Shown here: piece after piece, positions 52,413 to 64,000 of the stretch | Layout of the letters: each line of letters starts with the position of its first letter | Numbering within the stretch: the stretch's first letter is position 1 | Assembly: GCA_049656905.1 (NCBI GenBank) | Contig: JBASMO010000044.1 | Span: forward strand, 482 to 64,481 | From: Syntrophomonadaceae bacterium | GTDB lineage: Bacteria; Bacillota; Syntrophomonadia; Syntrophomonadales; Syntrophomonadaceae | Reading direction: 5' to 3' | DNA: 64,000 nt | Program-made: the position numbers and the translations under genes | Notes under the pieces: generated by a model | The model's input: the letters and a program-made list of their open reading frames with translations, nothing else | Databases searched by the model: none | Told to the model about the DNA's origin: nothing

Positions 52413-52435
52413 TAAATAAGAAACTCAAAAGTATC

Positions 52436-52556
52436 TTAGAGCGCTGAGTCTGCAATAGGCAGAGCGGAGGACCCGATTTTTGGGGTTAATCAGGTATGTA
52501 GCCTGAGGGGCTACCCAGCAGCCCCCACCCGTCAGCTAACTTCGTAAGCGTCGTTT
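52436..52556 (+). promoter_or_regulatory. ydaO-yuaA type (c-di-AMP) riboswitch
   Basis: It matches the remembered B. subtilis ydaO aptamer blocks in the same order. CAGAGCGGAGGACCC corresponds to CAGAGCGGGGGACCC. GGGGUUAAUC corresponds to GGGGUGAAUC. CCACCCGUCAGCUAACUUCGUAAGCGU corresponds to GAACCCGUCAGCUAACCUCGUAAGCGU. Confidence 0.85.
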
Positions 52557-52631
52557 GGGGGGTACTGTAACAATATATAGCTTACAGGTTAGTTGCCCTC
52601 CGCAAAATTTAAGAAGAAGGAGGGTTTTTGC

Positions 52632-53882
52632 ATGTCTCAGGAAGAAGTTGTAAACCGCAATCTATCATTGCAAAGAGCTGAAGAACTACGGGAAAGTATT
52701 AGCGATTATCTCAGCGTTGAACCTTTCATTGAAACCGGGTTTAGAGTGCAGGATAGAATCCTTGAAAATAGGCAAAAGATACTAGAATACTTCGATGCTA
52801 CCCAAGAGAACTGGGATGATTGGGTTTGGCAGATGAAGCATCGCATTACCGACGTAGAGCCATTACAGTTTTTGCTGAATCTGCCTGAAAAGGAAGTTGA
52901 GGAACTAAAGCAGATTAGCAAGCGATTCCGCTGGGGTATTTCACCTTATTATCTTAGTCTGATTGATTTCGAAAACTATCACGATTCTCCGATTTATAAA
53001 CAAGCCGTGCCTAGCATTTTAGAAGTATGGGATAACCATGGGTCTGCTGATCCCATGTGTGAAACCCAAACAAGTCCTGCCAGTCGGATCACCCGGCGTT
53101 ATCCGGATCGTTTAATTATTAATGTTACCAATCAATGTGCCATGTACTGCCGGCACTGCCAAAGACGACGTAATTTTGGAGAAGAAGATCACCACTGTAC
53201 TCGTCAGCAAATGGAGGAAGCACTAACCTATGTGCGTAACAACCCCGAGATAAGAGATGTGTTGATCACCGGGGGCGACGCACTCATGCTGAGCAATCGA
53301 ACCCTGGATTGGCTCCTGGGTGAATTAGATCAGATTCCTCATGTGGAGATTAAACGGTTGGGGTCCCGCACTCCCGTTACGCTGCCCCAGCGCATTACCC
53401 CGGAGCTCTGTGCTGTTTTGGAAAAGCATCCTCCTATATATCTAAATACCCAGTTTAACACACCCTTGGAAGTTACTCTGGAGGCTAAACAGGCTTGCGA
53501 TCGTTTAATAAAGGCTGGAGTTGTACTGGGGAACCAAGCGGTTTTACTAAGGGATATCAATGATGATGTTCACATTATGAAAAAACTTAACCAAGAACTG
53601 TTGAAAATACGAGTAAGACCATACTATATATTTCATGCTAAACAGGTTAAGGGAACTTCCCATTTTATTACCCCCATTGAAACGGGCATGGGTATTATGG
53701 AAAAACTAAGAGGCTTTACCTCTGGTTTAGCAGTACCAACCTATATTATCAATGCCCCAGAAGGACGAGGTAAAACGCCCATTTTGCCAGAGTATTTACT
53801 ATCCTTGAGTGAAGATGAAATAACTATCCGGACATGGGAAAATAGAGTATATAGATATAAGAACCGGATAAATCAAAGATAA
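52632..53882 (+). CDS. KamA-family radical SAM aminomutase, with a glutamate 2,3-aminomutase-like active-site signature
   Basis: CAMYCRHC (CxxxCxxC) cluster and PLP-Lys region. It aligns end to end with the remembered Clostridium subterminale KamA. The two lysine-binding Asp positions, however, read Lys (YYIFHAKQ versus YYIYQCDL) and Asn (YIINAPEG versus FVVDAPGG). The start is taken at ATG 52632 after GGAGGG. Confidence 0.85.
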   Translation: MSQEEVVNRNLSLQRAEELRESISDYLSVEPFIETGFRVQDRILENRQKILEYFDATQENWDDWVWQMKHRITDVEPLQFLLNLPEKEVEELKQISKRFRWGISPYYLSLIDFENYHDSPIYKQAVPSILEVWDNHGSADPMCETQTSPASRITRRYPDRLIINVTNQCAMYCRHCQRRRNFGEEDHHCTRQQMEEALTYVRNNPEIRDVLITGGDALMLSNRTLDWLLGELDQIPHVEIKRLGSRTPVTLPQRITPELCAVLEKHPPIYLNTQFNTPLEVTLEAKQACDRLIKAGVVLGNQAVLLRDINDDVHIMKKLNQELLKIRVRPYYIFHAKQVKGTSHFITPIETGMGIMEKLRGFTSGLAVPTYIINAPEGRGKTPILPEYLLSLSEDEITIRTWENRVYRYKNRINQR

Positions 53883-54043: not shown

Positions 54044-54412
54044 ATGACTAGAAAGGCTCAAGAGCTGGATAGGTGCGATTGTCAGGTAATTCATGAGGAT
54101 ATTGTTAACCAGGTCCTGCCCCAAATGCCTCCGGAAGAAACCCTGTATGATCTAGCCGAATTATTTAAGGTTTTTGGGGATTCCACTAGAGTTAAAATTC
54201 TATGGGCTTTAGATAAAGAAGAAATGTGTGTGTGTGATATTGCTTATCTTCTTAACATGACCCAATCGGCAATTTCACATCAACTGCGAGTCTTGAAGCA
54301 GGCAAAACTGGTTAAAAACCGCCGCGAAGGAAAAATAGTTTATTACTCTCTTGATGATGAACACGTCAGGCAAATATTCGAGATGGGATTATGCCATATA
54401 ATGGAGGAATAA
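54044..54412 (+). CDS. cadC: ArsR/SmtB family metalloregulator, CadC-like
   Basis: Winged HTH with the CVCD motif in alpha-3 plus an N-terminal CDC pair (alpha-3N thiolate site). A C-terminal D-x-H-x10-H-x2-E pattern (DEHVRQIFEMGLCHIMEE) forms the alpha-5 site. Confidence 0.8.
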   Translation: MTRKAQELDRCDCQVIHEDIVNQVLPQMPPEETLYDLAELFKVFGDSTRVKILWALDKEEMCVCDIAYLLNMTQSAISHQLRVLKQAKLVKNRREGKIVYYSLDDEHVRQIFEMGLCHIMEE

Positions 54413-54414
54413 TT

Positions 54415-56598
54415 ATGAGTAACAGAGAGTTGATTTTAGCTGACTGGGACACTTCCTTGGGTTCAAATGATCAACACCAAAACGGTAAACAATTGTTGCT
54501 CTTGGAAGGCTTGAGCTGTGTTAATTGTGCTGCCCAGATAGAAATAGAAGTCAATAATTTACCGGGAGTTAGCAAGGCCTCAGTAGATTTCTTTTCTCGA
54601 AAGCTGGCTCTGGAAACCGAAGAGGCTATAAATACTCCTGGAATAATTGCCAAGATAGAAAAAATAGTCAAACGGATTGAACCTGGGGTAAGAGTGGTGC
54701 AAGAAGATAGTAAAGAACAAGGTAATGCACATGGATACCGCAGTGAAGTCAATTTGAAAAGGCAAATTGGTCAGCTCCTAATGGGTGGAACACTATTTGC
54801 TGTGGGGTTAATTTTCAACTTTTCTCATTGGGTAGAACTTGTTCTATTCTTACTAAGTTATCTCATAGTGGGCGGAAGTGTTATTATACGAGCTGTTAAA
54901 GGGATTGCTCAGGGACAGGTATTCAGTGAATACTTTCTTATGAGTGTGGCTACCATAGGAGCCTTTTTGATAGGGGAATATCCTGAAGGGGTAGCTGTAA
55001 TGCTGTTTTATTTAGTAGGGGAAATGTTACAAGACCGGGCGGTAGAGAATTCTCGTAAATCCATCAGCTCTTTAATGGATATTCGGCCTGACTATGCCAA
55101 CTTAAAACTGGGCGAACAACTCCAAAAAGTATCACCGGAAAAGGTTAACATCGGTGACGTGATCATTATCAAACCCGGTGAAAAAGTACCTCTAGATGGT
55201 ATAGTTGTACAAGGCTCTTCGATGGTGGATACTTCAGCCCTTACAGGTGAGTCGCTGCCACGCCATTTGGAAGTGGGACAAGAAGCTCTCAGCGGCTTTA
55301 TCAATATGAACGGAGTACTGACTGTTCAGGTAACGAAGAACTTTGGCGAATCTACCGTGGCTAAAATTATGGATATGGTAGAAAACGCCAGCAGTCGCAA
55401 AGCCCCTACGGAAAACTTTATGACCAAATTTGCCCGCTATTACACACCGATAGTAGTATTTGGAGCGCTGGCCTTGGCCATCATACCCCCATTGATTATT
55501 CCGGGTGCAACTTTTTCTGACTGGATATACCGGGCACTGGTTTTCCTGGTTATATCCTGTCCCTGTGCTCTGGTCATATCAATACCGTTGGGCTTTTTTG
55601 GAGGGATCGGCGGAGCATCTAAAAAAGGCATATTGGTAAAGGGTGGCAATTACCTGGAAGCCTTGAACTTTGTAGAAACAGTGGTATTTGATAAAACAGG
55701 AACTTTAACCAAAGGGGTATTTAATGTTGCCGAGATCAATCCTAGTCCAGGCTATACACAGCATAATTTGCTGGAATATGCAGCATGCGCGGAAAGCTAT
55801 TCCAGCCATCCCATTGCCAGGTCGATAATAAATGCTTATGCAAACCATATAGATAAAAACCTAATTGAAGAATATGAAGAGATAGCTGGTCAGGGAATTA
55901 AAATTGCCATGCAAGGTCTAGTTATTTTGGTAGGTAATGACCGGCTAATGACTAGCCATAGTATAGAATACCAGAACGTTGATACTGTAGGAACGGCAGT
56001 GCATGTGGCTGTTGATGGGCAATATGCTGGTTGTATTGTCATCGCTGATGAAGTAAAAGAAGACGCAGCCCAGGCAGTTACCGAGCTTAAAGCTCTGGGA
56101 GTGAAGCAAACTGTTATGCTCACCGGAGACAGAGCGTTGGTAGGGAAGAGAATCGGAACCCAGTTGGGTTTGGACCAAATATATGCTGAGTTACTGCCAG
56201 GGGACAAAGTTCATAGATTGGAACTACTGGAAAGAGAGAAATCTGAAAAAGGCAAGGTGCTTTATGTAGGGGATGGCATAAACGATGCACCGGTACTAGC
56301 CAGAGCCGATATTGGAGTGGCCATGGGAGGACTAGGGTCTGACGCCGCTATAGAGGCGGCTGATATTGTAATTATGAATGACGCACCTTCGCAAGTAGCC
56401 ATGGCTATAAAAATTGCTAGAAAAACCCGGCATATTGTATATCAAAACATCGTATTGGCTTTAGGAATAAAGATCATCTTTTTGAGCTTGGGCGCTTTGG
56501 GAATGGCCACCATGTGGTCAGCAGTTTTTGCTGACACAGGCGTAGCTCTAATAGCCGTTATGAATGCTATGAGAACCATTAATGCCAAAAGCGTGTAA
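54415..56598 (+). CDS. cadA: P1B-type heavy-metal (Cd/Zn/Pb-like) translocating ATPase
   Basis: N-terminal HMA domain (CVNCAAQIE), TM CPC motif (SCPCALV), DKTGTLT, GDGINDAP and a TM8 Asp (FADTG), consistent with the Zn/Cd/Pb subgroup. The start is taken at ATG 54415. Confidence 0.9.
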   Translation: MSNRELILADWDTSLGSNDQHQNGKQLLLLEGLSCVNCAAQIEIEVNNLPGVSKASVDFFSRKLALETEEAINTPGIIAKIEKIVKRIEPGVRVVQEDSKEQGNAHGYRSEVNLKRQIGQLLMGGTLFAVGLIFNFSHWVELVLFLLSYLIVGGSVIIRAVKGIAQGQVFSEYFLMSVATIGAFLIGEYPEGVAVMLFYLVGEMLQDRAVENSRKSISSLMDIRPDYANLKLGEQLQKVSPEKVNIGDVIIIKPGEKVPLDGIVVQGSSMVDTSALTGESLPRHLEVGQEALSGFINMNGVLTVQVTKNFGESTVAKIMDMVENASSRKAPTENFMTKFARYYTPIVVFGALALAIIPPLIIPGATFSDWIYRALVFLVISCPCALVISIPLGFFGGIGGASKKGILVKGGNYLEALNFVETVVFDKTGTLTKGVFNVAEINPSPGYTQHNLLEYAACAESYSSHPIARSIINAYANHIDKNLIEEYEEIAGQGIKIAMQGLVILVGNDRLMTSHSIEYQNVDTVGTAVHVAVDGQYAGCIVIADEVKEDAAQAVTELKALGVKQTVMLTGDRALVGKRIGTQLGLDQIYAELLPGDKVHRLELLEREKSEKGKVLYVGDGINDAPVLARADIGVAMGGLGSDAAIEAADIVIMNDAPSQVAMAIKIARKTRHIVYQNIVLALGIKIIFLSLGALGMATMWSAVFADTGVALIAVMNAMRTINAKSV

Positions 56599-56604
56599 TG
56601 ACAA

Positions 56605-56649
56605 AAGTTGACCGATGTCTATCGCTGTGGGTAAGACATTGGTCAACTT
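56605..56649. terminator. Bidirectional terminator hairpin between convergent cadA and the DUF1858 gene
   Basis: A 16-bp stem, AAGTTGACCGATGTCT (56605-56620) pairing with AGACATTGGTCAACTT (56634-56649), with one G-T pair. It is flanked by A-rich sequence on the left and T-rich sequence on the right. Confidence 0.65.
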
Positions 56650-56658
56650 AAAGGTAAT

Positions 56659-56862
56659 TTAATTTTTGTTCTCTAGTTGGCGTAAATCATTCAATATTTT
56701 TTCGACAGGAACACCATGAGCTCGAGCACCCTGCTCGATGGTTTCAAACCTTACACCCGCTCAGCCCATACAGGCTATTCCATACTTCCGGAAAACCTGT
56801 TCGGCTCCGGGAATGGCCAAAACTTCTATCAAGGGGGTATTAGCTTCAACCAGTTTTGTCAC
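56659..56862 (-). CDS. DUF1858-type small redox protein with in-frame TGA (candidate selenocysteine) in the CxxC motif
   Basis: The minus-strand translation is VTKLVEANTPLIEVLAIPGAEQVFRKYGIACMG[TGA]AGVRFETIEQGARAHGVPVEKILNDLRQLENKN. Both halves fit the DUF1858 pattern (..IxEVL..P....VF...G..CxGC.....ETIEEGA..HG.....L...L) in a single frame. The TGA at 56761-56763 replaces the second Cys. A GAGGAGG SD is present. The start is uncertain because GTG 56862 abuts the SD; CTG 56853 is an alternative. Confidence 0.6.
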
Positions 56863-56878
56863 CTCCTCTTATTGTAGG

Positions 56879-56902
56879 AAAAATGGGGGAATAATCCCCC
56901 CA
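56879..56902 (-). terminator. Intrinsic terminator after the SASP gene
   Basis: On the minus strand, UGGGGGG pairs with UCCCCCA across an AUUAU loop, followed by UUUUU. Confidence 0.6.
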
Positions 56903-56913
56903 AAGAGTACGAG

Positions 56914-57102
56914 TTATCTTATTTGACCATTTTGCTGAGCAAGGCTTCTTTCGGCAATCTCGATAGCTTTGTTAACCATCATACCACAGTTTTTTGAGCT
57001 TACTCCGCCCCATCCTTCGGTGGCTACAATTTGGTCAACACCGAGTTCTCGAGCAATTTCATACTTTAATTGCTCAGACATAATGCCGCGTCTTCTTGCC
57101 AT
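56914..57102 (-). CDS. Small acid-soluble spore protein, alpha/beta type
   Basis: 62 aa with LKYEIARELGV and the GG...MVNKAIEIAE pattern characteristic of alpha/beta SASPs. GGAGG SD. Confidence 0.9.
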   Translation of the reverse strand: MARRRGIMSEQLKYEIARELGVDQIVATEGWGGVSSKNCGMMVNKAIEIAERSLAQQNGQIR

Positions 57103-63348: not shown

Positions 63349-64000
63349 TTGAAGAGTATGTACCGCTTAAAACCTAGGGATTTAAGAAAGTCCTGCAATC
63401 CCAAAAGCCTCAAGTTTGAAACTACTAAAGAGCTACTTCCCTTAAAGGGGATTATTGGTCAGGATAGAGCCCTGCGGTCCTTAGAATTTGCACTTACTAT
63501 CGATCATCAGGGGTATAATGTCTATCTAGCAGGTCCTTTAGGGACGGGTAAGACAACTTTGGCAAAGTATATGCTGGAGAATAAAGCTCGCCAAGAACCT
63601 TGCCCATCAGACTGGTGCTATGTTTACAATTTTGAAAATCCCGATTGCCCCGATGCTTTGGAACTTCCTGCTGGAAAGGGTAAACAATTCAAAAAAGATC
63701 TCGAGGACCAAGTGGAGAAAATAATTGCTCGAGTAGCCAAGGCTTTGGAAGAAGATGAATTCGATTACAAACGCGGTCAGATTATGAGCCAGTTTATGGA
63801 AAAAACTAATGATCTCTACATGCGCGCTGAGGAAGAAGCACGCAAGATGGGCTTTGGTATTACCAGAAGCGAACATGGTATCAGCAGCTATCCCTTAAAA
63901 GATGGGGAGGCTATGAACCAGGGACACTATTCGGAGTTAAGTGAAGATGAGCGAGCGGAATTAATGAAACGCAGCTATCGGGTACAGGAAATGTTAGCCG
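63349..64000 (+). CDS. Lon-like AAA+ protease, N-terminal part (runs off the window)
   Basis: The open frame has no stop before the window end. It contains YRLKPRDLRKSCNP..FETTKEL..IIGQDRAL..GPLGTGKTT (Walker A) and WCYVYNFENP, as in stand-alone Lon-like proteases. The start is TTG 63349 or ATG 63358. It is absent from the ORF track because it is unterminated. Confidence 0.7.
   Translation, partial: MKSMYRLKPRDLRKSCNPKSLKFETTKELLPLKGIIGQDRALRSLEFALTIDHQGYNVYLAGPLGTGKTTLAKYMLENKARQEPCPSDWCYVYNFENPDCPDALELPAGKGKQFKKDLEDQVEKIIARVAKALEEDEFDYKRGQIMSQFMEKTNDLYMRAEEEARKMGFGITRSEHGISSYPLKDGEAMNQGHYSELSEDERAELMKRSYRVQEMLA

Follow-up and report, generated by a model that had tools for sequence, protein, structure and literature searches.

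We analysed a 64,000-nt stretch of DNA from a Syntrophomonadaceae bacterium (assembly GCA_049656905.1, contig JBASMO010000044.1, positions 482 to 64,481 of the forward strand; hereafter the window), in which an earlier note, made from the letters alone, had singled out an unannotated minus-strand reading frame with an in-frame TGA as a candidate selenoprotein gene. Our results indicate, with a probability of about 0.9, that this frame at 56659..56862 (−), which includes its TAA stop codon (56661-56659), is a genuine gene of a Syntrophomonas-like digester bacterium that is decoded with selenocysteine (Sec) and encodes a single DUF1858/TIGR03980 domain of ∼64 residues. The gene is an unannotated new member of an already catalogued selenoprotein family. 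Its open frame is supported by the translation, by profile matches that span the TGA, by orthologues and by an AlphaFold2 model, each of which is described below.

From 56862 to 56659, the minus strand translates into VTKLVEANTPLIEVLAIPGAEQVFRKYGIACMG up to its sole internal stop, the TGA at 56763-56761, and continues in the same frame as AGVRFETIEQGARAHGVPVEKILNDLRQLENKN to the terminal stop. Profile searches were run on this translation with U replaced by C. A single match to DUF1858 (Pfam PF08984) covered residues 18-56 across the TGA with 42.2 bits (cut-off 32.2), and the hybrid cluster protein-associated redox disulfide domain (NCBIfam TIGR03980) matched residues 18-61 with 53.1 bits (cut-off 44.95), again spanning the TGA. 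The C-terminal 33 residues alone still reached 24.2 bits to DUF1858. The proposal that one DUF1858-type domain lies on both sides of the TGA in the same frame is thus borne out above the curated cut-offs of both families. So is the placement of the TGA at the second Cys of the C-x-x-C motif (giving C-M-G-U), a column occupied by Cys in PDB 2K5E as well as in 53 Cys-form homologues. The motif's first Cys, encoded by TGT at 56770..56772 (−), is invariant in 32 Sec-form and 53 Cys-form sequences and also in a 57-sequence alignment. As the earlier note had pointed out, the list of open reading frames (ORFs) misses the gene: for this region it gives the N-terminal piece (33 codons), an ORF on the antisense plus strand (56738-56926), and nothing else. 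Across the window, two in-frame TGAs outside all long ORFs are flanked by at least 30 open codons on each side, and a family match was obtained for this one only; the other lies at 63691, in the frame 63500-63781 (−), in an unconvincing sequence context. Of the 59 other long ORFs in the window, 16 end in TGA; the organism therefore uses the standard code, and recoding, if it occurs, must be local and site-specific.

Sequencing error does not account for the TGA, because the 204-nt gene is identical, TGA included, in 13 other assemblies from different samples (JGI, ENA, NCBI and Logan), the sole difference being one synonymous single-nucleotide polymorphism in one assembly. The neighbouring proteins match exactly those of metagenome-assembled genomes (MAGs) from anaerobic digesters that NCBI names Syntrophomonadaceae bacterium or Syntrophomonas sp. 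When the U-to-C translation was used in a word-indexed protein search, only the organism's own gene was returned, and a contig scan with the single protein as query gave no match. An exhaustive HMMER search, by comparison, recovered 133 DUF1858 relatives. Three of these have W at the TGA column, and two others are fragments, one of 30 residues that ends in C-V-G and one of 34 residues that starts just after that point; the DNA of these W-bearing and fragmentary relatives carries an in-frame TGA in every case. A further 80 loci came from a scan of GTDB species genomes with a pattern derived from a three-sequence alignment and were pooled with the earlier ones (L numbers below).

In total, 32 sequences have C-x-x-TGA (Sec forms), namely the window gene and 31 diverged orthologues with 27-71% identity to it, from Syntrophomonas, Syntrophothermus, other Bacillota and four Candidatus Sumerlaeota MAGs. 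Another 53, from bacteria and archaea, have C-x-x-Cys (Cys forms). The column at 56761..56763 (−) is therefore TGA in 32/32 Sec forms and TGY in 53/53 Cys forms, which answers the question, raised in the earlier note, of whether orthologues carry Cys or TGA there. The frame 3′ of the TGA is intact in all 32 Sec forms. Its median dN/dS there is 0.22 (311 pairs), against 0.26 for the part before the TGA. Because the downstream frame is both intact and under purifying selection, a pseudogene or a true stop is excluded as a general explanation; we found no true stop or frameshift in close relatives followed by unconserved sequence, the pattern that would speak against recoding.

The second line of evidence is a hairpin resembling a selenocysteine insertion sequence (SECIS), UCGAGC-AGGGU-GCUCGA, at 56722..56738 (−), exactly where the earlier note had placed it. 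Its stem starts 22 nt after the UGA and is formed by UCGAGC (56738-56733) and GCUCGA (56727-56722), which enclose the G-rich apical loop AGGGU (56732-56728), or GGG closed by an A-U pair. There are no indels between the Sec codon and the hairpin, and the 66-nt segments align without gaps. On average, 5.56 of the six pairs form in the Sec forms versus 3.08 of six in the Cys forms. Within the Sec alignment, 92.7% of cells are paired, compared to 12-48% in a control with slid 3′ partners, and none of 500 shuffles reached the observed pairing or covariation. At pair 33:47, for example, 18 sequences have C:G and 11 have U:A, which couples the wobble position of an Ile/Val codon to the middle base of the Arg (CGN) or Gln (CAA) codon that follows. 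RNAalifold predicted the same helix unprompted as the consensus fold.

Codon usage at the hairpin provides what we regard as the strongest control for a SECIS-like element. In the Sec forms, the synonymous entropies of GAG, CAG, GGU and GCU (Glu, Gln, Gly and Ala) are 0, 0, 0.21 and 0.21 bit, while four-fold sites nearby in the same sequences reach 1.9-2.0 bits; in the Cys forms, the same four codons have 0.97, 0.86, 1.88 and 1.96 bits. The synonymous sites of the hairpin are thus frozen in the Sec forms and free in the Cys forms, which suggests that the sequence is constrained only where a UGA must be recoded. Together, the alignments yield a well-supported putative family-wide SECIS consensus, U[C/U]GAGC-AGGGU-GCUC[G/A]N, which begins 22 nt downstream of the UGA. 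The four Candidatus Sumerlaeota Sec forms (L044, L045, L047 and L050) have the identical core UCGAGC-AGGGU-GCUCG and no neighbouring gene for a small acid-soluble spore protein (SASP), a distribution that suggests either horizontal transfer of gene and SECIS together or very deep conservation.

The bacterial SECIS (bSECIS) criteria of Zhang and Gladyshev call for a hairpin just downstream of the UGA, inside the ORF, with a conserved G in the apical loop. Conserved apical-loop guanosines of bacterial SECIS elements also appear in a figure legend of PMC2398784. Like the E. coli fdhF/bSECIS model, the window hairpin lies inside the coding region, with its G-rich apical loop 28-32 nt after the UGA. 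Unlike the bacterial model, it shows no conservation of a bulged U or a lower stem and is not represented in Rfam, where no family matched at the gathering threshold or at E values up to 10; binding by SelB is predicted. If the hairpin acts in the manner of the established bacterial pathway, SelB-GTP-Sec-tRNA(Sec) would bind it while the ribosome is at the UGA, and Sec insertion there would yield the C-M-G-U motif. The earlier note had also considered a larger structure closed by a GAGC/GCUC pairing that includes the UGA itself. This pairing uses the 3′ arm of the SECIS hairpin and therefore competes with it. Although it is the minimum free energy (MFE) structure of the single sequence, it is no better than shuffles (z = −0.49) and was not recovered by RNAalifold across the orthologues, and we discarded it.

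Database records of this locus are uneven. A gene between the SASP gene and cadA was left uncalled under the standard code in all ten further assemblies of the organism that we inspected, and consecutive NCBI protein accessions give it no room: HAA08467 denotes the SASP and HAA08469 denotes ArsR, and the number between them presumably belongs to CadA. Other gene callers leave fragments of 30-34 residues (P0090 and P0077). P0001 is the only full-length database entry for the window gene and has W at the TGA position; the same translation of the Sec TGA as Trp is found in P0002, P0023 and P0030, the four together corresponding to loci L001-L003 and L006-L008 in JGI, ENA and Logan records. The W in these records is most simply explained as a gene-caller artefact.

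These records bear on the rival explanations, none of which we consider at all probable. The TGA might be a true stop, leaving a decaying pseudogene or two unrelated mini-ORFs from which a peptide of 30-33 residues or nothing would be made. The absence of a gene call, or its replacement by pieces of 30-34 residues, and the gapless accession numbering would fit such a stop, as would the circumstance that the Sec machinery of this genome is deduced from relatives. Yet none of the 32 sequences has a disrupted frame beyond the TGA, where dN/dS is 0.22, and the C-terminal half matches DUF1858 in its own right. Nor would a pseudogene keep a TGA at the exact Cys column across lineages of 27-70% identity, or freeze the synonymous sites of a downstream hairpin, and we rate this possibility as very slight. 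Equally improbable, in our view, is decoding that places a standard amino acid at the TGA, whether the code has been reassigned (to Trp or Gly, as codes 4 and 25 do) or near-cognate read-through occurs. The four full-length products with W are what such decoding would predict. In this organism, however, TGA is a normal stop, the column is Cys in all 53 non-TGA homologues and never Trp or Gly, and the conserved SECIS-like hairpin accompanies TGA only.

A slightly larger, though still very small, chance attaches to the idea that the hairpin is a by-product of the encoded peptide I/V-E-Q-G-A-R/Q without SECIS function, any read-through being directed by other means. The peptide FET[IV]EQGA is kept in the Cys forms as well, so that GAGC...GCUC can be explained in part by coding, and three Cys forms (L085, L087 and L092) do reach six of six pairs. 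Against this, the Cys forms vary freely in the codons that they use for this peptide (0.86-1.96 bits) and form about half of the pairs on average, whereas the Sec forms use a near-invariant GAG-CAG-GGU-GCU while their other four-fold sites are saturated. Peptide conservation also leaves unexplained the covariation between the wobble position of the Ile/Val codon and the middle base of the Arg/Gln codon.

Several observations nevertheless weigh against Sec decoding of this gene. The gene is known here from sequence, and its Sec-containing product is a prediction. Taken singly, the hairpin is barely more stable than shuffles (z = −1.99 for a 29-nt segment, z = −0.49 for a 71-nt one); the case for it is comparative. 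The aligned start codon in the window lineage is a non-canonical CTG, and a promoter-site scan of the minus strand found no promoter of the gene's own. The redox mechanism proposed below is read from the CxxC/CxxU motif only. Finally, neither selA, selB, selC nor selD was found within the 64-kb window, which also contains no tRNA, and the presumed Sec competence of this genome derives from cultured relatives.

With respect to the machinery, tblastn searches with E. coli SelA and SelB found only IF-2 as a SelB-like protein in the window, and SelB itself in two unrelated deltaproteobacterial loci; a separate search with E. coli SelA had only Enterobacteria among the 120 matches listed. The four sel genes were not found in 40 related loci, which have no tRNA either, and the PDB holds no Firmicutes SelB entry. 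Judging by its relatives, a genome without Sec machinery is unlikely: Syntrophomonas wolfei is credited with 10 selenoproteins (PMC1794560) or 9 (PMC5029168 supplement) and Syntrophothermus lipocalidus with 6 (PMC5029168 supplement), proteomics of S. wolfei revealed a Sec-linked formate dehydrogenase (PMC3582634), and a digester Syntrophomonas MAG is reported to encode a Sec-containing formate dehydrogenase (PMC6687939). In the two deltaproteobacterial MAG contigs (L066 38-5885 and L055 1991-7663), genes for RNase G, a Cys-form DUF1858 protein, TlyA, an aminotransferase and SelB (TIGR00475 at 384 bits) lie on the same strand. We considered a selenium operon there, but the arrangement is probably a housekeeping cluster.

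Regarding translation initiation, the probable start codon is the near-cognate CTG at 56851..56853 (−), which lies 8 nt after the GGAGG core of a Shine-Dalgarno sequence, GAGGAGGTG, at 56860..56868 (−). GGAGGTG or a near variant is kept at this position in orthologues, and the CTG column is an ATG, TTG or GTG start in 29 of the 31 orthologues. On the basis of this alignment, translation would start at the CTG, so that the likely coding sequence runs from 56853 to 56659 (−), with 64 codons and the redox pair at Cys28/Sec31. The GTG at 56862-56860, the provisional start in the earlier note, would give 67 codons (56862-56659 (−), Cys31/Sec34). We rejected it in light of the same alignment, as this GTG is the 3′ end of the GGAGGTG Shine-Dalgarno sequence. 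Moreover, L029 has a stop directly after the in-frame GTG, and L025 has in-frame stops within and just after the Shine-Dalgarno sequence. Near-cognate codons also occupy the start column elsewhere (ATA in L009-L011 and ATT in L030), and the CTG of the window lineage is found in all 13 assemblies; translation of this gene may thus begin at a near-cognate codon in three lineages.

The gene is bounded by two hairpins. Its own intrinsic terminator at 56605..56649 (−), a 15-bp interrupted stem followed by a U-run, lies between it and the convergent cadA and is strong (56649-56605; MFE −18.9 kcal/mol, z = −6.0, 0/200 shuffles folding as well). Upstream, the terminator scan detected a GC-rich hairpin with a U-run after the SASP gene at 56884..56902 (−), which is unexceptional as a lone hairpin (z = −0.95) and probably a leaky terminator; the Shine-Dalgarno sequence follows 15 nt later. 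Orthologues have an equivalent hairpin of different sequence after the SASP gene, and the Syntrophomonas-like ones share the same order of SASP gene, hairpin and gene, often with a poor U-run. The minus-strand scan agrees with the earlier note in finding no obvious promoter, and the likeliest source of transcripts here would be read-through from the SASP gene past the hairpin at 56902-56884; transcription would then end at the gene's own strong terminator. In the Syntrophothermus-like group, but not in the window lineage, the stretch that separates the hairpin from the Shine-Dalgarno sequence contains a conserved TGTTATAAT (extended −10); extended −10-like TG(T/C)TATAAT sequences occur in L032, L034-L040, L042 and L043, ∼30-40 nt upstream of the Shine-Dalgarno sequence.

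AlphaFold2 models the protein as a five-helix bundle (predicted local distance difference test (pLDDT) 88.8, predicted TM-score (pTM) 0.78). Numbered from the GTG, Sec (residue 34) is at the start of the third helix (34-39) and Cys31 in the preceding loop. Foldseek aligned the model to PDB 2K5E with a TM-score of 0.85 and a root-mean-square deviation of 2.5 Å, and 2K5E also matched in sequence (E = 1.7e-11), its C-I-G-C aligning to C-M-G-C. The window protein thus resembles the TIGR03980 Cys forms with solved structures (PDB 2K5E and 2K53, structural-genomics entries without assigned function) in profile match, fold and position of C-x-x-C. It differs from the Cys forms in having Sec for the second Cys and in being flanked by SASP and cadA genes rather than by a gene for hybrid cluster protein (Hcp). 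No Hcp gene adjoins the gene (only its surroundings were profiled for Hcp), so the association that gave TIGR03980 its name is not seen here; the family tends to show this association, but the domain model does not require it.

The model also aligned to the N-terminal domain of YtfE/RIC (5FNN; TM-score 0.69, probability 0.99). Similar to ScdA_N (PF04405; PDB 5FNN) of the iron-sulfur repair di-iron proteins YtfE/ScdA/RIC, it has a small helical fold, with weak sequence matches far below the family cut-offs (E = 0.0015 for Pfam ScdA_N, E = 0.002 for NF008221). In contrast to those proteins, it stands alone, without a hemerythrin-like di-iron domain; it is a structural relative of ScdA_N and not a RIC protein. 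In the literature, DUF1858 appears in nitrosative or denitrification and iron-sulfur contexts, for example in an NnrR-regulated Bradyrhizobium gene, in Thermus DrpB and in SufT fusions. Going by the motif, Cys and Sec would form a reversible selenenylsulfide, and the protein would act as a small thiol/selenol redox module or one that handles metals or nitric oxide.

The neighbours of the gene are the SASP gene, a radical SAM (S-adenosylmethionine) gene, cadA and arsR. The SASP gene at 56914..57102 (−) lies directly upstream on the same strand; it is of the alpha/beta type (Pfam PF00269 on an identical product, which source records name minor alpha/beta-type SASP). A same-strand SASP gene was found 50-110 nt upstream in 24 of the 31 Sec-form loci and a divergent one in a further Sec-form locus (L051), whereas none of the 53 Cys-form loci has a SASP neighbour. 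The loci concerned are L004, L006, L009-L011, L023-L040, L042 and L043. This association would allow the gene to be the downstream partner in a conserved SASP-selenoprotein pair, read through in the Syntrophomonas-like lineages from a forespore-expressed SASP gene, and its product to be a spore-associated selenoprotein, such as a selenol-based guard, redox or metal, that is placed in the spore core. We know of no spore-specific selenoprotein that has been described. We regard this reading as doubtful. The whole block of radical SAM, SASP, DUF1858 (followed by LAM in some), MgtC and IMPDH genes is syntenic across the Syntrophomonadales, which weakens the adjacency as functional evidence. The pairing may be inherited rather than functional.

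Other features of the locus concern its history and surroundings. The Sec-form loci L041 (labelled Solirubrobacterales) and L043 (labelled Acidobacteriota) have flanking radical SAM and IMPDH genes, and L043 additionally has SASP, DUF47/PhoU-like and MgtC genes. These flanking genes are mostly 62-76% identical to those of the window and in the same order, and the two contigs probably represent Syntrophomonadales DNA that was assigned to the wrong MAGs in binning. The window lineage, L023 and L025 are the only ones in which the arsR-cadA pair (54044-56598 (+); cadA encodes a metal-efflux P-type ATPase) lies between the selenoprotein gene and the KamA-like gene. The pair is missing from other Syntrophomonas-like loci (compare L004, L009 and L026-L033) and looks like a lineage-specific insertion. 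Further away, a cyclic di-AMP (c-di-AMP; ydaO-type) riboswitch at 52432-52565 (+), scoring 85.8 bits, lies directly upstream of a radical SAM gene at 52593-53882 (+), which has a lysine-2,3-aminomutase C-terminal domain. This arrangement hints at possible c-di-AMP control of a beta-lysine-type osmolyte pathway.

DUF1858 (PF08984, CxxU, with WP_012065717.1 as the example) is included in the prokaryotic selenoprotein catalogues of 2022 (PMC9312934) and 2026 (PMC13188914). As far as the catalogue entries go, the window gene shares with the selenoproteins listed there the Pfam domain, a CxxU with Sec in second position, a single Sec and a small stand-alone protein; for WP_012065717.1, the likeness is taken from the catalogue description. 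The passages on DUF1858 in these two catalogues mention neither a SECIS consensus, nor a SASP linkage, nor a near-cognate start, and the searchable text of the primary papers cited for the entry does not name a DUF1858 selenoprotein. The family-wide SECIS consensus, the near-cognate starts and the position directly downstream of a SASP gene may hence be new, as secondary points.

The family and the mechanism were known before, and our understanding of Sec decoding is unchanged by this gene. Its significance is more local. The Sec/Cys pair pins the catalytic residue of the DUF1858 domain, and the putative SECIS consensus can be used to find DUF1858 selenoproteins and to annotate them correctly. 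Standard annotation of Syntrophomonadaceae genomes omits this protein-coding gene, and databases hold truncated or Trp-bearing versions of its product. Since syntrophic butyrate oxidisers play a key part in biogas reactors and need selenium, a complete selenoproteome matters for trace-element dosing.

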